From the IMG/VR virus record IMGVR_UViG_2684622581_000006: a stretch of DNA of 24,010 nucleotides. One strand, given 5' to 3'. Both the position numbers and the translations under genes were made by a program. This stretch comes from a virus. Its lineage: Duplodnaviria; Heunggongvirae; Uroviricota; Caudoviricetes. Below are positions 6,424 to 22,869 of the stretch, one piece after another (position 1 is the stretch's first letter; every line of letters starts with the position of its first letter). Below the pieces are notes generated by a model that saw only the letters and a program-made list of their open reading frames with translations, was not told the origin of the DNA and ran no database searches.

Positions 6424-7074
6424 TCAGCGGCTGTCATTGCGCAGTCTGCGCTCCAGCTGCTGTTTGTCTTTTTTCACGCCACAGCGGGGATCGAGCTGTA
6501 ACGCATGGTTGAGATGATTAAGGGCGGACGCCGGATTGCTTTCACTCAGGACCGCGCCAATCGCTTTATGCAGACGTGCCCGTGACTGGTCCGGCATATC
6601 CAGACCGTCTGTCAGCTCCAGCGTCTGCAGCAACAGATCGGCATCAAAGCCGGTGGCGGCAAGCATTGCGCTCTGGGCTGCGTCTGCCATTTCCTCTGCC
6701 AGCACGGTCTGCACGTTGCGGTTACCCAGCGGCATCACCCAGCCATGACGCAGGGCATGACGCCCGATCTCCAGCGCCCCGGCATAATCTCCGGCATCAA
6801 TGCGCCACAGCATCACGTACATCAGCACGTCATCCTGTTGCGCGCCTCCGGCAGCCAGGACACCCTCCGCCCAGGCGGCGTACTTCGGCAGCAGCTCCAC
6901 CTTGATTTCCGCTTTTTTGACCGTGGACTGAACGCCCTTGAGACGGCGGCGGTCTTCCGCCAGTTGCAGCAGCATCAGGTCATAGCCCGACGCGTGGCGA
7001 ACACTGCCGCCCTCGCGGGCGGCCTGTTCAGCCTGAACGCGCAGGCGATGCTGCCGTGCGGGACTCAGGCTCAT
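6424..7074 (-). CDS. M: Terminase endonuclease (small) subunit M
   Basis: 216-aa ORF between N and L, as P2 gpM. Confidence 0.8.
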   Translation of the reverse strand: MSLSPARQHRLRVQAEQAAREGGSVRHASGYDLMLLQLAEDRRRLKGVQSTVKKAEIKVELLPKYAAWAEGVLAAGGAQQDDVLMYVMLWRIDAGDYAGALEIGRHALRHGWVMPLGNRNVQTVLAEEMADAAQSAMLAATGFDADLLLQTLELTDGLDMPDQSRARLHKAIGAVLSESNPASALNHLNHALQLDPRCGVKKDKQQLERRLRNDSR

Positions 7075-9128: not shown

Positions 9129-10895
9129 ATGAACACCACACTGACACCCGCAGATCTCGATCCCCGTCGGCAGGCCATGCTGCTGTACTTTCAGGGATAC
9201 CGCGTAGCCCGCATTGCTGAAATGCTGGGCGAGAAAGTTGCAACCGTTCACAGCTGGAAAAAACGCGACAAGTGGGGTGACTATGGGCCGCTGGATCAGA
9301 TGCAGCTCACCACCGCCGCACGCTACTGCCAGCTCATCATGAAGGAGCACAAAGAAGGGAAAGATTTCAAAGAGATTGACCTGCTGGCGCGCCAGTCTGA
9401 GCGCCACGCGCGGATCGGCAAGTTTAACAATGGCGGCAACGAAGCCGACTTAAACCCTAACGTCGCCAACCGCAACAAAGGCCCGCGCCGTCAGCCGGAA
9501 AAAAATGTCTTCACCGATGAACAGATTGAGAAGCTGGAAGAAATCTTCCATTCCTCCATGTTCAACTACCAGCGCCACTGGTGGGAAGCCGGAAAAACCA
9601 ACCGCATCCGCAACCTGCTGAAGTCACGCCAGATCGGCGCGACCTTTTACTTTGCCCGTGAAGCCCTGATTGACGCCCTGCTTACCGGGCGTAACCAGAT
9701 TTTCCTTTCCGCCAGTAAGGCACAGGCCCACGTCTTTAAGCAGTACATCATCGACTTCGCCAAAGAAGTGGAGGTGGAGCTGAAAGGCGATCCGATGGTG
9801 CTTCCTAACGGGGCCACGCTTTACTTCCTCGGCACCAATGCCCGCACTGCCCAGAGTTATCACGGCAACCTGTATCTGGATGAATATTTCTGGATACCGA
9901 AATTCCAGGAGCTGCGCAAAGTGGCTTCCGGTATGGCTATTCACAAGAAATGGCGACAAACCTATTTTTCCACGCCATCCAGCCTGACTCATAGTGCTTA
10001 TCCGTTCTGGTCCGGTGCGCTGTTCAACCGTGGGCGCAACAAAGCCGACAAGGTGGACATCGACCTGTCCCACAGCAATCTGGCCCCCGGCCTGCTGTGC
10101 GCAGACGGGCAATACCGCCAGATAGTCACCGTGGAAGATGCGGTGCGCGGCGGCTGTAACCTGTTCGACCTTGACCAGTTGCGCATGGAGTACAGCCCGG
10201 ACGAATACCAGAACCTGCTGATGTGCGAGTTTGTGGACGATCTCGCGTCCGTGTTCCCGCTCAGCGAGCTGCAGGCGTGCATGGTGGACAGCTGGGAAGT
10301 CTGGACCGACTTTCATGCACTGGCTCTGCGCCCGTTTGGCTGGCGCGAAGTGTGGATCGGTTATGACCCGGCAAAAGGTACGCAAAACGGCGACAGCGCC
10401 GGATGCGTGGTGGTGGCACCGCCAGCCGTGCCTGGTGGTAAGTTCCGCATTCTTGAGCGTCACCAGTGGCGCGGGATGGACTTCCGCGCCCAGGCTGACG
10501 CCATCAAAAAACTGACCGAGCAGTACAACGTGACCTACATCGGCATCGACTCGACCGGCGTCGGCCACGGGGTTTACGAGAACGTGAAAGCATTCTTTCC
10601 TGCCGTCCGGGAGTTTGTCTACAACCCCAACGTTAAAAACGCCCTGGTGCTCAAGGCCTACGACATTATCAGCCACCGCCGTCTGGAGTTTGACGCCGGA
10701 CACACCGACATTGCGCAGTCATTCATGGCAATCCGTCGCGCCACCACCGCCAGCGGCAACCGCCCGACCTATGAAGCCAGCCGCAGCGAAGAAGCCAGCC
10801 ATGCCGATCTGGCCTGGGCAACAATGCACGCACTGTTTAACGAACCGCTGCAAGGCGAGTCCGCCAATACCAGCAATATTGTGGAGATTTTTTGA
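9129..10895 (+). CDS. P: Terminase ATPase (large) subunit P
   Basis: 588 aa (P2 gpP is about 590); transcribed divergently from O and followed by Q with a 4-nt overlap, exactly as in P2. Confidence 0.9.
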   Translation: MNTTLTPADLDPRRQAMLLYFQGYRVARIAEMLGEKVATVHSWKKRDKWGDYGPLDQMQLTTAARYCQLIMKEHKEGKDFKEIDLLARQSERHARIGKFNNGGNEADLNPNVANRNKGPRRQPEKNVFTDEQIEKLEEIFHSSMFNYQRHWWEAGKTNRIRNLLKSRQIGATFYFAREALIDALLTGRNQIFLSASKAQAHVFKQYIIDFAKEVEVELKGDPMVLPNGATLYFLGTNARTAQSYHGNLYLDEYFWIPKFQELRKVASGMAIHKKWRQTYFSTPSSLTHSAYPFWSGALFNRGRNKADKVDIDLSHSNLAPGLLCADGQYRQIVTVEDAVRGGCNLFDLDQLRMEYSPDEYQNLLMCEFVDDLASVFPLSELQACMVDSWEVWTDFHALALRPFGWREVWIGYDPAKGTQNGDSAGCVVVAPPAVPGGKFRILERHQWRGMDFRAQADAIKKLTEQYNVTYIGIDSTGVGHGVYENVKAFFPAVREFVYNPNVKNALVLKAYDIISHRRLEFDAGHTDIAQSFMAIRRATTASGNRPTYEASRSEEASHADLAWATMHALFNEPLQGESANTSNIVEIF

Positions 10896-11920
10896 TGGGA
10901 AAGAGTAAGAAGAACCGCGCTGCGGCGACGAAACAGATCCAGCTTAAAAGTCAAACTACAGCCGAAGCATTCAGCTTCGGCGATCCCGTTCCTGTTCTGG
11001 ACCGCCGAGAACTGCTGGACTATGTGGAATGCGTACAGACAGATCGCTGGTATGAGCCGCCAGTAAGCTTTGACGGACTGGCGCGCACCTTCCGCGCCGC
11101 CGTGCATCACAGTTCACCAATTGCGGTGAAATGCAACATTCTGACCAGTACCTACATCCCTCACCCGCTGCTCAGCCAGCAGGCTTTTTCACGTTTTGTG
11201 CAGGACTATCTGGTATTTGGTAACGCCTACCTGGAGAAACGCACGAACCGCTTCGGTGAAGTTATCGCCCTTGAGCCTGCTCTGGCAAAATACACCCGAC
11301 GCGGGTTAGACCTGGATACCTACTGGTTTGTGCAATACGGTATGACAACCCAGCCGTATCAGTTCACGAAAGGCAGCATTTTTCATCTGATGGAACCGGA
11401 CATTAACCAGGAGATCTACGGCCTGCCCGGCTATCTTTCTGCCATTCCGTCCGCCCTGCTCAATGAGTCCGCCACGCTGTTCCGCCGCAAGTATTACATT
11501 AACGGTAGTCATGCAGGCTTCATCATGTACATGACCGATGCTGCGCAGAACCAGGAGGACGTGAACAACCTCCGCAATGCAATGAAAAGTGCCAAAGGTC
11601 CGGGTAACTTCCGCAACCTGTTTATGTACTCGCCTAACGGCAAAAAGGACGGGCTTCAGATTATCCCGTTGTCAGAGGTGGCGGCGAAGGATGAGTTTTT
11701 GAATATCAAGAACGTGAGCCGCGATGACATGATGGCTGCGCACCGCGTGCCGCCGCAAATGATGGGGATTATGCCTAATAATGTTGGAGGGTTTGGGGAT
11801 GTGGAGAAGGCCGCAAATGTGTTTGTGCGCAATGAACTTTTGCCATTACAGAAACGCATGGAGGAGTTAAACCATTGGCTGGGTGAGAAAGTTATTGCAT
11901 TTTCATCCTATTGTTTATGA
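10892..11920 (+). CDS. Q: Portal (capsid vertex) protein Q
   Basis: 342 aa (P2 gpQ is about 344); last gene before the cos region in P2-family genomes. Confidence 0.9.
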   Translation: MMGKSKKNRAAATKQIQLKSQTTAEAFSFGDPVPVLDRRELLDYVECVQTDRWYEPPVSFDGLARTFRAAVHHSSPIAVKCNILTSTYIPHPLLSQQAFSRFVQDYLVFGNAYLEKRTNRFGEVIALEPALAKYTRRGLDLDTYWFVQYGMTTQPYQFTKGSIFHLMEPDINQEIYGLPGYLSAIPSALLNESATLFRRKYYINGSHAGFIMYMTDAAQNQEDVNNLRNAMKSAKGPGNFRNLFMYSPNGKKDGLQIIPLSEVAAKDEFLNIKNVSRDDMMAAHRVPPQMMGIMPNNVGGFGDVEKAANVFVRNELLPLQKRMEELNHWLGEKVIAFSSYCL

Positions 11921-11930
11921 GATATAAATT

Positions 11931-11954
11931 GGTGGCCTTAATTATATAGCCACC
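11931..11954. terminator. Hairpin between convergent genes Q and the TIR gene (possible bidirectional terminator)
   Basis: GGTGGC-cttaattatata-GCCACC followed by ATATTGCTTTTTATTTT on the plus strand; the complementary strand also has a T-rich tract after the stem. Stem is short (6-7 bp). Confidence 0.4.
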
Positions 11955-11964
11955 ATATTGCTTT

Positions 11965-12777
11965 TTATTTTACTCTAAAGGCATCATCGGCTTTATGTGG
12001 TATAGGAGCATAACGCTCGGTACTTACTCGATGTAGCACCGCAAATATATTCAAAGGTGAACCATCCTTTAACCTAAGAGAAACATACATTGGCATCGTT
12101 GGTGTTAACCCCCGATTTAGGCCAACAGTGGCACCACTTACTTTCATACCATTTTCTAAAGATGCATTTTCAATAAACCCCTGAGTGAATGTGCTTTCTC
12201 CATTGACCATAACAACAACATCATCATGCTTAATTGTATTATCCATAATCATCATAAAATCAGCAATTGGTTCTAAAAAATCCATTGCTGATAATTTCAC
12301 TATCTTACCCCCATCACCATCCTTAATATCATAGGAGAGGTTTGAATACTTCTCAGGATTAGGAATATACGTATTTTGTTGATTAATGACATCTATAATT
12401 TGTCTTATTGCCACATCGATCCCATACGAATAAAGATCAATATATAGCGTTTGAGTAAGCAGAGCAGGCAAGGATATATTCTGGCAACGTATTGGTATAA
12501 ATTTACACTTCCCGGACGATGCCTTAATTAAAGCATTTTGCCATTCCATTTTTACCATGTTACTTGCCAAACTATTTTCTGTGACAAAAAAGAAAAAGAA
12601 CGATACATTCTCCATTCCTAAATTCATCTTGTCAATAATACCCTCTCCGGGTTGGATAGACCAAGAATCGTAGAATACGTTATCACGCCCATAAACATCT
12701 GCTAGTTTTTCCGCTATAACACTTACAAACCTTTTGTCACGGTGATTATGACTTAGAAAGATCATAGCATGCCCCAT
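11965..12777 (-). CDS. TIR-domain protein with about 135-aa C-terminal domain of unknown function (cargo; candidate anti-phage protein)
   Basis: N-terminus IFLSHNHRDKRF...FYDSWSIQPGEGI...FFFFFVTENSLASNMVKMEWQNA has the bacterial TIR hallmarks (F-x-S-H start, aromatic run, W-x-x-E helix with a candidate catalytic Glu near residue 78). Strongly AT-rich compared with flanking phage genes. Start could be M1 (12777) or M5 (12765). Confidence 0.75.
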   Translation of the reverse strand: MGHAMIFLSHNHRDKRFVSVIAEKLADVYGRDNVFYDSWSIQPGEGIIDKMNLGMENVSFFFFFVTENSLASNMVKMEWQNALIKASSGKCKFIPIRCQNISLPALLTQTLYIDLYSYGIDVAIRQIIDVINQQNTYIPNPEKYSNLSYDIKDGDGGKIVKLSAMDFLEPIADFMMIMDNTIKHDDVVVMVNGESTFTQGFIENASLENGMKVSGATVGLNRGLTPTMPMYVSLRLKDGSPLNIFAVLHRVSTERYAPIPHKADDAFRVK

Positions 12778-12846
12778 TAGAAATTAATGTGTAAGATCTG
12801 CGTAGAGAGTCACCGACAGTGTACCAATAATAATCTTCTGCGCGCA

Positions 12847-12865
12847 ATCGTATCCCCGCCACGCC
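12847..12865. other. Candidate cos (cohesive end) site, P2/186-type
   Basis: Reverse complement reads GGCGTGGCGGGGATACGAT, matching about 15/19 of the recalled 19-nt cohesive end of phage 186 (GGCGTGGCGGGGAAAGCAT) and P2 (GGCGAGGCGGGGAAAGCAC). It sits in a GC-richer non-coding stretch (12780-13065) on the expected side of Q. From memory only; coordinates +/- 2 bp. Confidence 0.4.
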
Positions 12866-13065
12866 TGCCCACTTTATGTAGTGGTTTTCATGCACCTGCA
12901 TGACATAAGCAAAAGCACGCCAGTTCTGGCTGGCATCAGCGAAAACGATCGTCATACTATCATGCGATCTCATGCGCCATATGAAGTTTTCCTGACACAG
13001 CCTTGGGTTGGGATAACACCTAACTCAGGAAGATTTTTTGTGTGTTTGTAACCCACACCTAGAGT

Positions 13066-14235
13066 TTACCAATCCATGTTTGCGGCATTATCCATCTCAC
13101 GAGTTAAGTAATTAACAAATAAGTCCATATTCCTTTCTGATTTCATCGCCTCCGCATAGGTTCCATTAGTTACGTAAGATAGTATTAAAGGACATCCAGA
13201 TTCAATATAAATTTTTGCTGGGGACAGTTCTCCCTGCCACAAATTTTCAAGAAAATCGTTAATTAATTGCATTGCTTCAGGTGCCAAAAAATGCACACCA
13301 TTTCCAAACTTGAAACGTTCTTTATTTTCTCGATGAGGCAGCAATAGTGGCACAGCCCCTACACTTGAGTGAAATTCCAATGCTTGCCCATCCTTACCGA
13401 AGGCGCCATGGGCTACAAAATTACGCACCTGTTTTCTGAGTATAAGTAAACGATCATAGAACAATTTTAGACTGGAAGAGTTAATATCAATGGCTAATTT
13501 GAATTTCTCCCCCCATTCTTTTCCAACTTTATCAGCCACATCATTCCCATTTTTTATCTCACCCTTCAAGATTGCAATAAGAATGAAAACATGCTCGGTC
13601 CAATTGAAAAATGACTCAATTGCAGACGTTGCTAACCACATAGCCTCTCTTCGGAGTTCAATTATCTTATTTGATTGTTCAAAAGTGGATTGTAACAGGC
13701 TGAAAAAATTATCAGACTTAAACTCACTATCAACTTCCAGTTTAGACTCTTGGCCAGCAGCAACTTCATCAAGCTTCTGTTTATATAGCTCTAAAAAATA
13801 GCAAAACCTATCATAAAGAGAATTAGCATTGTTATTAACATTTAGATTTGAAGTCTTTGCTGCATTGTCTGCAAGCGAGTCAAAAAAATTCGTAGCAGCT
13901 TTAACCCCTGCGCAAATATGTCTCAAAACAATTTTAGCTTGCTCTATATCATCATCACTCTTGATAAATATATCTAAACCAAGTTTACGATGTTCTATAA
14001 TTACGACAGTCCCATCAATCCGGACTGGGATAGAAAAAGAAATCTTCTCATCAACCCCACGATTTTTAAATTTCAGTAAATCTACCAAAAGAAAATAAAC
14101 GAGATAATACGGAGGTAATGAGTCTCCCAAACCCGAGCGCTTACCCCAAAAATATTCATCAAGCTCGGCAGACTCCATTGTCCCTATGACTCTTCGGACG
14201 CGTTCTTCAACTTTAGCCAGATCCATTCCCCACAC
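13066..14235 (-). CDS. Hypothetical 389-aa protein with HEPN-type R-N-x-x-A-H-G motif (cargo; candidate nuclease effector)
   Basis: Long AT-rich ORF between A and cos at the position where P2 carries old/tin. Contains LRKQVRNFVAHGAF (R271..H276), a canonical Rx4H HEPN signature. No further family recognised by eye. Confidence 0.6.
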   Translation of the reverse strand: MWGMDLAKVEERVRRVIGTMESAELDEYFWGKRSGLGDSLPPYYLVYFLLVDLLKFKNRGVDEKISFSIPVRIDGTVVIIEHRKLGLDIFIKSDDDIEQAKIVLRHICAGVKAATNFFDSLADNAAKTSNLNVNNNANSLYDRFCYFLELYKQKLDEVAAGQESKLEVDSEFKSDNFFSLLQSTFEQSNKIIELRREAMWLATSAIESFFNWTEHVFILIAILKGEIKNGNDVADKVGKEWGEKFKLAIDINSSSLKLFYDRLLILRKQVRNFVAHGAFGKDGQALEFHSSVGAVPLLLPHRENKERFKFGNGVHFLAPEAMQLINDFLENLWQGELSPAKIYIESGCPLILSYVTNGTYAEAMKSERNMDLFVNYLTREMDNAANMDW

Positions 14236-14396
14236 CGCCTTTCAATATCACTTAAGGTATTACAGCCAATGACATCGATTAAATACAGCGTAGATAATAG
14301 GCAACTTGCTACTGTTTTCAAGGGCTTTCTGTTTCAATCCTTAGTTGACCTTGCTGACGCGAGAATCTAGTTCTCACGCCAGCAACGCCCCTGCTG

Positions 14397-14585
14397 CTAA
14401 CCGAGAAGATCCATTACACGGTTATATTCATGGGCACGAATTTTCGCCATCAACTCATCAGTCAGCTCTGAAACCCACTGCAGAGCCAGCCCCTTCTCTT
14501 CATCACTACACTCACTAGCCGCTACAAGCTTAAGAAAAAAATCAATGCGCTGGAGCTTCAAAGACTCCAAAAAATAGTCCTGCAT
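14397..14585 (-). CDS. Small acidic hypothetical protein (about 62 aa)
   Basis: ORF 14397-14687; internal start MQDYFLESL is preceded by an AGGAGG Shine-Dalgarno about 5 nt upstream. Lies between the A stop and the 389-aa gene. Confidence 0.45.
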   Translation of the reverse strand: MQDYFLESLKLQRIDFFLKLVAASECSDEEKGLALQWVSELTDELMAKIRAHEYNRVMDLLG

Positions 14586-14738
14586 TTTTCCTCCTATGAC
14601 ACCACAAGCAATACTGTATGCATAACCACTGTTTATATTTACAGTATATAATAATCTTACTGATGTAAAACGTTTTTTTACGTTCATCAGCCTGATATGC
14701 CTGGTATTATTAAGAGCACGAATTGTTAATCCGCGTAA

Positions 14739-17153
14739 TTAATACAGGTTCCGCCACTTATCATCTTCCCACAAACGCTGGTTCCGATAGAAGATACGCA
14801 AGCCTGCTCCTGACGGAATACTGCCGCCGCGAAGGAGTAAATCGACCTCTTTCTCGCTGCCATCAAATCCTCTGGACTTCAGCTCATAGACGAGCTGCAG
14901 TCGCTGATGGTCTGTAATTCGCTGTTTGTAGTCTTTACGCCGTTTCGGTTTAACCAGGCGTAACCTTGCTGCCAGTTCCCGGCGCTCTTTTTTGCTCATA
15001 CTGTGCAGGTAATCGTGCAACTCCTTGTCATCCATGCGGGTAATGTCCGTTCTGGTGTCCCCATCAGCTGATTTATCTTTCTCCTGTTGGTTCAAATTTT
15101 CAGCAAGGGGACAGTTATTGCCACGAGTCCAAGGGGCGCAAGTGCCCTGGTCGGCTGCCGCCTCCTGAACGTCAACGGCCTTACGAACCATTTTCCACTT
15201 CACTGCATGAGTGCAGATCTTGCCCTCTGCAATGGGTGACCAGATGCCATAAATACGAATACCGTGATCGCCATAGGCGGTTGGCTCTTCGTTGATTTCA
15301 TAAGCGGTTCTGATGAGGTGATATTTGCGGGGAACCAGTACGCCGCCCTGCTTCATGATGTAGGTGGCAAAACAACCAGCATCAGCAGCAGCCAGGATGG
15401 CATCAAGGCGCGGGTTATCCAGTACCGGCGCACCTGCTTTTTTGTCACCCTGTTGCCTTGCCGCCTGACCAGCCAGCAATCGCAGTTCACGGTAAGCCTG
15501 ACGCCCCGGAATGCCAAAGAAGCGGAATTGCTGAACACGATGCAGAGACGCCCAGGCATTAACGTATTCAGCGTTATCACGCAGGGATTTACCCGTTTCC
15601 TTACTGATCTCGCCAGCCAGACCACGCCCGTCAATATTCTTACTGATATATTTCGCAATGTAGCTTGTCGGCGTTCCTTTGCGCGGGTTTATCAGCTCAG
15701 ACTTAAAGCGTGGCCCCGTGTTATTGCCCAGCTCCTCGCGGTCTTCACGGATGGCAAACTTACGCAACAATGCAGTAATGGCGCGGCGCTCTTTTTTGCG
15801 CATGAAACACAACAGGTGCCAGTGAACTGTGCCGTCATGATGCGGCTCAGCCACCCGCACGCCATACCAGCGCAACCCGGCTTTGTGCATAGCCTTACGA
15901 AATGCAGCAAACATGCCGACCAGATAATCGCTGCTTTGTCTTACTGTCGCGTTGGTCCAGGTCGGGTTTGGCCTGCCGTTATTTAGCGTGGAATGGAAAC
16001 GTGACGGACAGGTGATGGTGTAGAAAACGGCGCAGTCACCACGCATTTCCGCGATAAGCTCCAGGCCTTTAACACAGGCCATCATCTCATTGCGGCGATG
16101 CGCCGGGTTGCTGCTGCTGGCGTTTACCACATCCTCCATGTTCAGCGTGTCGCCGTCTTCGTTCACCAGTTCATGAGAACGGAAAAACTCCAGCGACTTA
16201 CGGCGCTGCTCACGTTTATGCATCACGGCTTCATAGCTGACATAGGGAGATGCTTTTTTGCTGACCAGGCTGACAGCACGCAACTGCTCTTCCCGCCATT
16301 CGCAACGCATCTTCCATAATTTCCGATACCACCAGTCGGCGCACAGCATACGCGCCAGCGAACCCGGAATGAGTTCATAGGGCACAGGTTTGCGGCGGTT
16401 TCTTTTCCGGCGGAGTTGCTCAAACGCAGGCGGTATGACATCCAGTCGCAGGGTTTCTGCAGCCACCTTTTCCCATGTCTTGCGGATTTCTTCTGGCTTA
16501 ACATCATCGGAGGCGTACAAATCACCACAAGCGGCATCAAGACACATGCTCATATGCGCAGCGACAAGGGTAGACAGGCGTTTCACCTGATCCTGACTCA
16601 TTTCAGGCAGGATCAGCAGACCGTCCAGCCCTTCATGGCTTGCCATAAAACGAAAAGATGCAGATAGCTGGCTGTCGCGTACATGCTCCAGTCGTTCCAG
16701 ACATGGCTTAATCGTCTCACGCAAATAGCGGGAATAAGCCTTTGGCCTGCCCAGGCTGCTGAAATATTCAATACGTTGCATCAGCGGCTTGCTGATATGG
16801 GAAGGCTGGGCGTTGACGTCGGCCAGAATGACCATGTCCGGATTAAAACGCTGCTGCTCATGCGCCATCTTTGCCCGGCTAATGAGCTTATCCTGCTCCA
16901 TTTCGCGTTGGACAGGATCACGGGATTCATTAAAGAAATAACGCTCCCAGACCTGATCACTCAGTGCCTCGCGGCGCAGTTGTTCCTGCTCGTTATCAGT
17001 AGCGTACAGAGTGATCAGGTTTGAAAGCGCAGAAACCGGCGCAACTTCCGCCGGGTCCAGATAAGGGTTAATGGCCTTTTTCGGGCTGTTCCATGAGAAT
17101 GCTGCGGCGACCTCGTTAAAGCCGCTGCAGTTGTTCATATCAGCATGGCTCAT
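14739..17153 (-). CDS. A: Replication initiation protein A (rolling-circle nickase)
   Basis: 804 aa; HUH-like motif (TVHWHLLCF) and the YIAKYISK tyrosine motif typical of P2 gpA-family initiators; preceded by dam with overlapping stop/start. Confidence 0.9.
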
Positions 17154-20146: not shown

Positions 20147-21097
20147 ATGTCAACTCAAAAATTCACATTTCGCCATATGAATGACGATATGAAAGCCGCT
20201 GTCATACAGAATCGCGGTGGTCAGAAAGTAATTGAGCGGATCCTCATGGCTTATGGCTTCAAGTCACGCCAGGCATTCTGTAATCACCTAGGTATTTCCC
20301 AAAGCACGATGGCTAACAGATATGCCCGCGATACATTTCCAGCAGATTGGGTTGTTATCTGCTCGATGGAGACAGGCGCATCAATTGAATGGCTAGCATT
20401 TGGTTCAGGTGTTAAAGAAAGAATGTCATCTTCTTCACTAGAACAACATGCTGAAAAACAAACCGAAGATGGACTTTGCGACAAAGTTCACTCTTCCCCC
20501 ACTCTGTTCGATAATGAAATCCACATGAATTTCACTCATGGAGGAAAAGCAGTAATAGAACGAATTGTTGAAGCTTACGGTTACAAGACACGTCAAGCCT
20601 TAGCTGATCACCTTGGTATTTCAAAAAGCACGTTAGCCACACGATATATGCGTGATACTTTTCCTGCTGATTGGGTAATTCAGTGTGCTATCGAAACAGG
20701 AGTATCCATCACGTGGTTAGCCTTTGGGAAAGGAGATAAAATAGAAAAAAATAGCAGTTTAAACTGTATAAATATACCAAAGTTTACTCTAAATAATGCA
20801 AAATTAATTGAGAGCGGGAACTCGATATTTGATAAAAATCTGTTACCTGAAAATACGATATTTCCTTGTTTGATTGAAAATGTAAATAACTTTTACATTT
20901 GTGAAAAAAGATTCAATAATATTATTGATGGCGAGTGGATCGTTGGTATTGATGGAGATATCAGTATTCGAACAATCACTAAATTACCTAATGAAAAAAT
21001 TCAAGTAAAAAATAAAAACATAGTTTTTGAATGTTCAATAAACGAAATCGAATTTATTGCAAAGATCGTATTATCCATTAATAATGTTAGAGGTTAA
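20147..21097 (+). CDS. cI: CI-like immunity repressor with two tandem HTH (186 CI-type) domains and an AT-rich C-terminal domain
   Basis: 316 aa. Two homologous segments (VIERILMAYGFKSRQAFCNHLGISQSTMANRYARDTFPADWVVICSMETGASIEWLAFGSG and VIERIVEAYGYKTRQALADHLGISKSTLATRYMRDTFPADWVIQCAIETGVSITWLAFGKG) recalled as the 186 CI N-terminal HTH fold; divergent from apl-cII. Confidence 0.65.
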   Translation: MSTQKFTFRHMNDDMKAAVIQNRGGQKVIERILMAYGFKSRQAFCNHLGISQSTMANRYARDTFPADWVVICSMETGASIEWLAFGSGVKERMSSSSLEQHAEKQTEDGLCDKVHSSPTLFDNEIHMNFTHGGKAVIERIVEAYGYKTRQALADHLGISKSTLATRYMRDTFPADWVIQCAIETGVSITWLAFGKGDKIEKNSSLNCINIPKFTLNNAKLIESGNSIFDKNLLPENTIFPCLIENVNNFYICEKRFNNIIDGEWIVGIDGDISIRTITKLPNEKIQVKNKNIVFECSINEIEFIAKIVLSINNVRG

Positions 21098-21098
21098 A

Positions 21099-22253
21099 AT
21101 GACTGACAGCAATTATATCAATAATAATTCTCTTGAGGACACAATAGAGATAATCGAAGAAGAACAGAACGATTCTTACTCAAATGATGATTTATACAAT
21201 ATAAACTCATGGGGGGCCGATTTATCTTTTAGAGAACTTATTACAATGTATGATGAGGGCGAACTTCAGAAACCAGAACTTCAAAGAAATTATGTTTGGG
21301 ATAAAGTCGAAGCCAGTAGATTTATAGACTCATTATTGCTAGGTCTTCCTGTTCCGAGTATTTTTTTAGCAAATACGTCTGACGAAAACAAACTCATTAT
21401 AGATGGTTTTCAGAGAATCATGACTGTCTATGATTATGTGACAGGTATATGGTCAAAAGATAGTAGAGTCTTTAAACTTTCCGATAGTAGAAAAATTAAT
21501 GCAAAATGGCGTGGTAAGGCCTTTAATGAACTTACAGTTTCAGAAAAAAAGAAAATTCGCTCAACAACTATACACGCTATAATCTTTGAGCAAACCGTTC
21601 CGTCGAACGATGATACTAGCCTATATCAAATTTTTGAGCGTATAAATACTGGTGGACGTTCACTAATGGCTCAAGAAATACGTAATTGCGTATATCAAGG
21701 GAAATTAAATACTCTATTGATAGAACTAAACAATAATATCAAATGGCGTACTTTATTCGGTTCTAATAAACCAGATGCACGAATGAGAGATATGGAATTC
21801 ATTCTAAGAGGCTTGGCTCTTAACACGCAGAAAATAAAGAGTCATGAACCAGCAAATATTTCTCTAAAAAAACTCCTTAATGAATATATGGGTGATAAAG
21901 CAAATAACACCTCTGACATGATCGACACCATTAAAACCGATTTTGAAAACACCATTAATTTTATTCATGATAATATAGGACCAGATGCATTCTTTAATAT
22001 AATCCAATCAGATCCATCACGTATACGTCGTCGTTTTTATCCAACCATTTTTGATGCATTATATGTCGCAACATCCATTGCATTAAATTCAGGTGAAGAC
22101 ATAAACACTAACGATCTAGAGCATAAAAGAAATGAGTTACTACAAAATCAGACATTTCGGTCACATATCACATCTGGTACAATGCAGATAGAAAATATAC
22201 ATGGAAGAATTTCAATGGCACTGGAGTTTCTTTATGGCATTCAATATCGTTAA
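21099..22253 (+). CDS. DUF262 (ParB/Srx-like, GmrS-type N-terminal domain) protein (cargo; candidate defence component)
   Basis: ORF 21057-22253; start at MTDSNYINN (ATG about 21099) is preceded by GAGG and begins 1-2 nt after the cI stop. Contains LQRNYVWDK and IIDGFQRIMT, matching the DUF262 F/YQR.YVW and DGQQR signatures. Very AT-rich. Confidence 0.7.
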   Translation: MTDSNYINNNSLEDTIEIIEEEQNDSYSNDDLYNINSWGADLSFRELITMYDEGELQKPELQRNYVWDKVEASRFIDSLLLGLPVPSIFLANTSDENKLIIDGFQRIMTVYDYVTGIWSKDSRVFKLSDSRKINAKWRGKAFNELTVSEKKKIRSTTIHAIIFEQTVPSNDDTSLYQIFERINTGGRSLMAQEIRNCVYQGKLNTLLIELNNNIKWRTLFGSNKPDARMRDMEFILRGLALNTQKIKSHEPANISLKKLLNEYMGDKANNTSDMIDTIKTDFENTINFIHDNIGPDAFFNIIQSDPSRIRRRFYPTIFDALYVATSIALNSGEDINTNDLEHKRNELLQNQTFRSHITSGTMQIENIHGRISMALEFLYGIQYR

Positions 22254-22869
22254 TAATAATGCTAAAAATAGCATTATAGATTGTTTAAAGGAACTTGAGA
22301 GTATAGAGAAGATGATAGAATCTTCTGGCCCCACTACAACTATTGTTAAATATTTAACACGATATTCAATTATTAGAACCTGCGGAACCATTGAATATTC
22401 TTTCAAAACAATCATTAGCGATCATAAATATGATCAACATAGTGAACAAATACAAAGATTCATTGATGAAAAATTCAGAAATAGTTCAATGAACCCTAAT
22501 TACGATAATATTTGTAAGGCACTTGGTTCATTTGATAATAACTGGTGTAACAACTTTAAGGACAAAATCAAGAACGATCCGCACTCAAATAAATTACGTG
22601 ATTCGTTGAAATCTTTAAATAGAGCCAGAAATGATTTCGCTCATGGAAAAAGCCCCACAGTATCATTTCAATATATTTTCGACTATTTTATAGATAGTGT
22701 AGCCATTATTCAGAAGATGGAGTCATCAATACTTGATTTAGAAGCGACAAATACGAATATTGGATTAACTAAATCTAACGACCGAGATAATACATTTTCT
22801 GATTTAGTTAATAATTCACAAAGAAATATCGCTAATGACCCTGAAAATAATTTAAGAGCAGATTTATAG
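22234..22869 (+). CDS. Hypothetical protein with HEPN-type R-N-x-x-A-H-G motif (cargo; candidate nuclease partner of the DUF262 protein)
   Basis: ORF 22201-22869; start at MAFNIVNN (about 22234) is preceded by GGAG about 10 nt upstream and overlaps the DUF262 stop by about 20 nt. Contains LNRARNDFAHGKSP. AT-rich. Confidence 0.6.
   Translation: MAFNIVNNNAKNSIIDCLKELESIEKMIESSGPTTTIVKYLTRYSIIRTCGTIEYSFKTIISDHKYDQHSEQIQRFIDEKFRNSSMNPNYDNICKALGSFDNNWCNNFKDKIKNDPHSNKLRDSLKSLNRARNDFAHGKSPTVSFQYIFDYFIDSVAIIQKMESSILDLEATNTNIGLTKSNDRDNTFSDLVNNSQRNIANDPENNLRADL

Follow-up and report, generated by a model that had tools for sequence, protein, structure and literature searches.

The window analysed here, a stretch of DNA of 24,010 nucleotides, was a prophage of the P2/186 family (Peduoviridae), reversed relative to the P2 map. 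A block of baseplate, lysis and head genes on the minus strand included L, the small terminase gene M, N and O; the large terminase gene P and the portal gene Q lay on the plus strand. After Q, the minus strand encoded in turn a TIR-domain protein, a protein of 386 or 389 aa, a protein of 62 aa, gpA and a Dam methylase, and these were followed by CII, CI, a GmrSD_N-like gene and an integrase. The gene for the GmrSD_N (DUF262)-like protein (398 aa; 21057-22253, plus strand), which had the CI repressor gene on one side and the integrase gene on the other, looks, together with a 222-aa ORF at 22201-22869, like a further defence-type cargo slot of the same prophage. The features that bear on the interval between Q and gpA were as follows.

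6424-7074, minus strand: terminase small subunit, homologue of gpM (Pfam Phage_term_smal, 2.2e-40), presumed to recognise cos
9129-10895, plus strand: terminase large subunit, homologue of gpP (Pfam Terminase_6N, Terminase_6C and Terminase_5), presumed to cut cos
10892-11920, plus strand: portal gene, homologue of gpQ (Pfam Phage_portal)
11931-11954, no strand assigned: hairpin GGTGGC..GCCACC followed by a T-run, terminator-like and cassette-specific, between the convergent Q and TIR genes
11965-12765, minus strand: TIR-domain protein, 266 aa long or 270 aa if started at the ATG at 12777, which fills the left (Q-side) slot
12746-12973, minus strand: 75-aa ORF spanning cos, judged not to be a gene
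12827-12832, minus strand: TATTAT, the best -10-like hexamer for the TIR gene in our own scan (8/12, weak), putative only
12839-12846, minus strand: conserved 8 bp on the Q side, TGCGCGCA, the left boundary of the conserved island in a stack of 71 unique relatives
12847-12865, minus strand: cos 19-mer GGCGTGGCGGGGATACGAT, predicted 5' cohesive end from comparison with 186, SEN8 and P2
12866-12990, minus strand: right-end cos arm of about 125 bp, with GCATG/TGCAT repeats and GGTGCATGAAAACC, the presumed terminase-binding region
12917-12936, minus strand: inverted repeat GCCAG-AA-CTGGC followed by GCTTTTGCTT, 52-71 bp from the predicted cut
13066-14226, minus strand: HEPN-like protein, 386 aa long or 389 aa if started at the GTG at 14235, which fills the right (A-side) slot
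14294-14321, minus strand: promoter-like TTGAAA-16-TATTAT upstream of the HEPN-like gene (10/12, a consensus match only)
14397-14585, minus strand: conserved 62-aa backbone gene downstream of A (phrog_698, 4e-36; RefSeq WP_001154428)
14739-17153, minus strand: replication endonuclease gpA (Pfam Phage_GPA, 6e-126), the right boundary of the hotspot

The cos 19-mer and the island around it

Read from 12865 to 12847, the minus strand was GGCGTGGCGGGGATACGAT. The original prediction was that this reverse complement came close to the cohesive ends of 186 and P2, and comparison with the annotated starts of the two phage records bore this out: the 19-mer was identical to the 186 end (GGCGTGGCGGGGAAAGCAT) at 16 of 19 positions, with three mismatches, and to the P2 end (GGCGAGGCGGGGAAAGCAC) at 14, with five. 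It was identical at 18 of 19 positions to the annotated cos of SEN8, an isolated infectious phage of Salmonella (Felsduovirus, NC_047753). The SEN8 record starts with a 'putative cos site' GGCGTGGCGGGGATACGAG, annotated as ggcgtggcggggatacgag, and ends exactly at the base homologous to position 12866 of the window; the genome paper names this cos by annotation rather than by end mapping (PMC5427200). When both strands of the 24-kb window were searched for the 186 cos with up to three mismatches, a single match was returned where 0.01 were expected by chance (100 dinucleotide shuffles); therefore, there is no better cos candidate elsewhere in the window. The flanks agreed with 186 as well, in the order CATAAAGTGGGCA, 19-mer, TGCGCGC. 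The element thus resembled the cohesive ends of Peduoviridae in being 19 nt long, G+C-rich and related to GGCG(A/T)GGCGGGGAAAGCA(C/T).

Conservation was examined among 80 IMG/VR loci (L009-L088) whose portal proteins were 93-100% identical to that of the window. The 19-mer, which reads (A/C)TCGTATCCCCGCCACGCC on the plus strand, was present in 75 of them, the remaining five loci being incomplete, and was invariant across the 75 except for its last base. By comparison with the 186 and P2 records, the minus strand is predicted to be nicked 5' of 12865 and the plus strand between 12846 and 12847; with three of the 19 bases unlike 186, these exact positions are an extrapolation. The literature contained the 19-mer only in papers on SEN phages, among which no experimental end mapping for this cos variant was found.

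When 71 unique relatives were stacked on the 19-mer, an island of conservation was apparent at 12839-12990 (-125 to +8 around the 19-mer), and conservation collapsed beyond both of its edges. Homology to E. coli loci that do not carry the TIR cassette likewise began at 12839. Alignment with P2 and 186 had been proposed as a check on the original prediction; when the junctions of four sequences, the window together with SEN8, 186 and P2, were circularised and aligned with MAFFT, homology took in the 19-mer with its flanks and extended for about 125 bp towards A (the right end) and for 8 bp towards Q. The aligned arm contained GGTGCAT(G/T)AAAACC and repeated GCATG/TGCAT motifs. Matches by blastn against a phage collection were limited to 12839-12981 and came from Fels-2, SopEPhi, RE-2010 and P2-like phages of Klebsiella and Yersinia. 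Most of the conserved flanking core was therefore situated to the right-end side of the cut.

The inverted repeat at 12917-12936, (C)GCCAGAACTGGC(G), was conserved in the clade and in 186 and was absent from P2. It had a T-rich tail and was situated between the TIR and HEPN-like genes. Its fold was not significantly better than those of shuffled sequences (z -1.7), and for this reason it was not called a terminator; possible roles are the binding of a protein or, as a terminator, the protection of cos from transcription on the A side.

Three phages provide the closest comparisons. In 186 (NC_001317, Eganvirus), cos also has the portal gene on one side and the A operon on the other, the two flanks are identical, and the right arm, with its TGCAT repeats and GCATTAAAACC, is homologous; the cohesive end differs at positions 14, 16 and 17 (TAC-G in place of AAG-C), cos and the portal gene are only 176 bp apart, with a terminator in between, and the other side holds tum and orf97. 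P2 (NC_001895) and its satellite P4 share the 19-nt, G+C-rich 5' cohesive end and the general architecture, and the sequence they need is mostly on the right-end side; a 55-bp cos core has been described for P2/P4 (Ziermann and Calendar 1990, as cited in PMC5694545). P2 differs from the window in having 167 bp containing only a terminator between cos and Q, and in carrying its cargo genes, old and tin, on the A side alone, transcribed away from cos. SEN8 resembles the window in its right arm (86% identical) and in that the space from its cos to its portal gene is occupied by two genes, one for an HNH endonuclease and one for a hypothetical protein; it differs in its cargo genes on both sides and in keeping a DinI-like gene.

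The window had 926 bp between Q and cos, whereas P2 has 167 bp and 186 has 176 bp; the extra DNA thus amounts to approximately 0.75 kb, close to the 0.8 kb originally estimated. Situated between the end of Q (11920) and the end of A (14739), the 19-mer occupied the same position in the gene order as cos in P2 and 186. A terminase of the gpM/gpP type was encoded at full length by the same element: the small subunit was identical to SEN8 gpM at 206 of 216 residues (95%), the large subunit to SEN8 gpP at 586 of 588 (99%), and M, P, Q, O, N and L were all intact. Taking these observations together, we regard it as very probable that 12839-12990 is the cos of an E. coli prophage of the Fels-2/186-like kind (Peduoviridae), working by the mechanism outlined below and flanked by two cargo slots.

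By analogy with P2 and 186, the gpM/gpP terminase would bind the A-side arm of about 125 bp and introduce staggered nicks around 12847-12865, producing 5' cohesive ends of 19 nt that would anneal after injection and then be ligated. With only some 8 bp constrained on the Q side, the DNA between cos and Q is free to vary, as is the stretch that separates the cos arm from the A operon. The two slots, filled in this window by a stand-alone TIR-domain gene on the left and a stand-alone HEPN-like gene on the right, would then recombine independently, with the conserved cos island providing homology shared between them. In virion DNA, the TIR gene would start about 90-100 nt from the left tip and the HEPN-like gene would end about 200 bp from the right end. 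The placement of cos is consistent with the earlier proposal that, after cleavage, the TIR gene is the leftmost and the 386-aa gene follows A at the right end, so that there is cargo on either side of cos; coordinates and strands of the ORFs also agree with the view that only circular or prophage DNA brings the two genes next to each other in one orientation.

The site might instead be an inactive relic in a defective prophage, such that no virion DNA with these ends was ever made. The copy in E. coli S43 (L104, NZ_CP010237.1 4920716-4938394) is 100% identical to the window over 11800-14800 and sits in a defective prophage in which a deletion has joined a gpE fragment to the 3' part of P and removed everything that lay between them, the P remnant being annotated as an 'oxidoreductase' pseudogene; the window, however, is intact there, and encodes full-length packaging and head proteins with 95-99% identity to those of SEN8. 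Between the 62-aa gene and the cargo (14236-14396), the window has no DinI/Tum-like antirepressor, which was present in 63 of 69 relatives and seems to have been displaced by the HEPN-like cassette; this prophage may consequently lack SOS induction of the 186 type, which would also suit a relic. Finally, the 19-mer departs from the experimentally defined 186 cos at three positions, but these differences are fixed across the clade, infectious SEN8 included, and so represent a lineage-specific variant rather than decay. Given also that the island is clearly constrained between two hypervariable regions, a relic is distinctly improbable.

Independent assortment of the TIR and HEPN-like cassettes

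The Q-side protein combined an N-terminal TIR domain (Pfam TIR_2, 1.3e-22) with a C-terminal beta-rich domain. Its TIR motifs were invariant, including E74, the presumed catalytic glutamate, as expected of TIR-domain proteins of the NADase type, and it belonged to a widespread family of about 260 aa that is conserved over its full length. Comparison with Thoeris gave only a weak match to ThsB (6.8e-4) and no ThsA-like neighbour, either here or beside distant homologues. The hairpin that separates this gene from Q had a fold energy of -13.3/-13.8 kcal/mol (z -2.9/-3.3), and in the relatives a terminator hairpin for Q was supplied at this place by each left cassette itself. The last 20 or so residues of the portal protein (approximately 11860-11920) also co-varied with the left cassette, the ending ...MEELNHWLGEKVIAFSSYCL occurring only with the TIR cassette; this places a recombination boundary inside the 3' end of Q.

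The A-side protein had an N-terminal alpha/beta domain and a helical, HEPN-like domain containing RNFVAH. In keeping with the Rx4-6H motif of HEPN proteins, R268, N269 and H273 (RNxxxH) were invariant in 37 homologues of 43-67% identity, and the domain had the all-alpha HEPN fold. The best match to a curated HEPN family was Csx1_HEPN (E = 0.051; 14.4 bits where the cutoff is 23), and searches of Pfam, PADLOC, NCBIfam, PHROGs and, by profile, PDB sequences produced nothing significant. The protein is HEPN-like and belongs to no named family; the label first given to it was reasonable on the strength of the invariant motif, though no curated family matched. Its 1,245 homologues, for which no Pfam domain was found, make up a large family without a Pfam, PADLOC or NCBIfam model. 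In Klebsiella, the gene comes directly after hsdR, the last-named belonging to a type I restriction-modification operon, inside an island bounded by an integrase; in Thalassospira, it comes directly after hipBA.

The distribution of the two cassettes was determined by searching 5,426 complete E. coli genomes with 11960-12838 (TIR) and 12995-14300 (386-aa gene). At 99.5% identity or above, the TIR cassette was present in 9 genomes, the HEPN cassette in 10 and both in 3. In strain 1283, the 386-aa gene was accompanied on the Q side by a gene for a 557-aa hypothetical protein, and homology to the window started at 12839; elsewhere, the TIR cassette faced DUF4145 plus DinI, or REase/ASCH, across cos. 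The IMG/VR relatives told the same story on a larger scale, with 48 left clusters and 24 right clusters forming 62 combinations in 69 loci. Distant TIR homologues were found beside integrases or transposases with no constant neighbour, and distant homologues of either protein, in surroundings typical of mobile elements or defence, had no partner of the other kind. The original prediction had treated TIR and HEPN as a pair, a view that does not survive this independent assortment. Co-occurrence in three genomes does exceed what random assortment predicts, but shared descent of one prophage explains the excess equally well.

The pair might still constitute one two-gene system, in which a TIR signal generator and a HEPN effector are expressed as one transcript across cos, and which would exist only in circular or integrated DNA. 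Such an arrangement would suit two genes that lie 288-300 bp apart on the minus strand, the first of them without a strong promoter that could be detected, and that occur together in the three E. coli genomes and in one IMG/VR locus (L009); TIR-plus-effector pairs are moreover a known design, as in Thoeris (PMC9122126). However, 6 of 9 TIR cassettes and 7 of 10 HEPN cassettes occurred without the other at the same identity threshold, distant homologues of one family never neighboured the other, and the breakpoints of homology coincided with the edges of the cos island. The two genes are also separated by the conserved terminator-like repeat (the fold of which was not significant), and the HEPN-like protein has no recognisable nucleotide-sensing domain, as judged from the negative Pfam, PADLOC and NCBIfam searches. 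A single system is therefore highly improbable. On the favoured reading, in which the cos island is flanked by two separate cargo genes, each of the two probably works as a single gene for an effector of anti-phage defence or abortive infection and is expressed from the lysogen; neither matched a validated defence system, PADLOC returning weak TIR-domain matches for the one and none for the other.

The 75-aa ORF that spans cos matched phrog_28685 (1.1e-24) over residues 1-46 only, the very residues that the conserved island encodes. Among the 75 relatives, its frame ended after anything from 6 to 90 aa, closing after 22 aa in 37 of them and after 6-17 aa in several others, and where it was read through, the C-termini were specific to the cassette. 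That this is a real small gene is scarcely credible, the phrog match and the 'hypothetical protein' that several phage records place over the homologous DNA notwithstanding, since the match stops where the island stops, the frame is shut early in so many relatives, the C-termini differ with each cassette, virion DNA would split the ORF in two, and the conservation is accounted for by the DNA site. The earlier opinion that the ORF was probably no gene can thus be endorsed; phrog_28685 ('unknown function') probably consists of translations of the cos island rather than a real protein, and the hypothetical proteins called over cos in phage records probably have the same origin.

Orientation of cargo and division of the gpA-gpQ hotspot

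Cargo on the Q side had a marked polarity: 69 of 70 ORFs of at least 90 aa, in 48 distinct cassettes, ran from cos towards Q. The orientation of ORFs on the A side was mixed (42 to 20). The leader between the cos+8 boundary and the first ATG had a median of 108 nt among cassettes and measured 61-73 nt for the TIR gene. A tool-based scan identified no minus-strand promoter upstream of the TIR gene, and neither this nor our own scan produced a convincing sigma-70 promoter for it; at normal spacing from the TATTAT at 12827-12832, a -35 element would fall inside the cos 19-mer. Promoter-like sites at the starts of 47 left cassettes numbered 12, compared with 8.0 +/- 2.2 in shuffles, which is not a significant enrichment, and 6 of the 12 best sites started within 5 nt of the conserved cos+8 boundary, several -35-like elements lying right against it. 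It could be proposed that left-slot cargo is built to be read outwards from cos, with promoters that depend on sequence across or inside cos, although we consider this unlikely. Were it true, such cargo would be transcribed only after circularisation and ligation, or from the prophage, and the packaging site would be a physical on-switch for defence genes.

The layout was not unusual but the rule in this clade. Cargo of 0.5-3 kb was present between Q and cos in 73 of 75 loci, the other two having a short interval like that of P2 and 186; the distance from Q to cos ranged from 180 to 3,051 bp (median 1,564 bp). The A-side interval was minimal, at 789-790 bp, in 19 of 69 loci. In the relatives, Q-side cargo included SEFIR/TIR, DUF4062, AAA_13, UvrD-like helicase and AIPR domains, together with KAP NTPase, GmrSD, Schlafen/AlbA_2, PIN_12 and reverse transcriptase. 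G+C content was 0.32-0.40 in cargo and 0.51-0.62 in the phage backbone. The content between gpA and gpQ varied among loci with portals that were 93-100% identical, and was rich in defence-associated domains, TIR and HEPN-like in the window and those just listed in its relatives.

These are the properties of a published hotspot. According to Rousset et al. 2022 (PMC9122126), the 'cos-proximal' region between gpA and gpQ is a defence hotspot that often contains more than one system, and PMC13586616 confirms it at larger scale. The present locus agrees with that account in its A and Q boundaries, its hypervariable content among near-identical phages, its defence-type domains and its possession of more than one cargo gene. 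It differs in that, in the accessible text of both papers, the hotspot is published as one interval, with the two sides of cos not separated and orientation uncommented; nor, in that of PMC9122126, are the TIR and HEPN-like genes among the validated systems. Table S5A of that paper gives WP_032248694 as 'hypothetical', alongside a different gene set, which speaks for independent slots. The position between cosL and Q had itself been named a hotspot earlier (PMC5694545, citing Dodd and Egan 1996). The retrons Ec67 and Ec86 (Dodd and Egan 1996) and phiRSY1 (PMC5694545) are alike in that foreign genes replace cos-adjacent DNA of a 186-related prophage, and one relative of the window (L083) has a reverse transcriptase in its Q-side slot; their cargo is unlike that of the window.

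An ordinary cos of the P2/186 family within a published variable hotspot makes the finding correct, but not new. Three points are mildly new: the cos island splits the hotspot into two independently assorting slots; the slot on the Q side is the more often filled in this clade, and also the more diverse (48 against 24 clusters); and Q-side cargo almost always points away from cos. None of the three was found in the accessible parts of PMC9122126 and PMC13586616, and they may have been made elsewhere.

Marking cos at 12847-12865 fixes the ends of the virion genome and removes a spurious ORF from the annotation. The gpA-gpQ hotspot is better regarded as two units, to be analysed separately whenever neighbouring genes are used to infer multi-gene defence systems; in the present case, treating TIR and HEPN as one system would be a false inference. 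Both cargo genes are instead uncharacterised candidates for single-gene defence.
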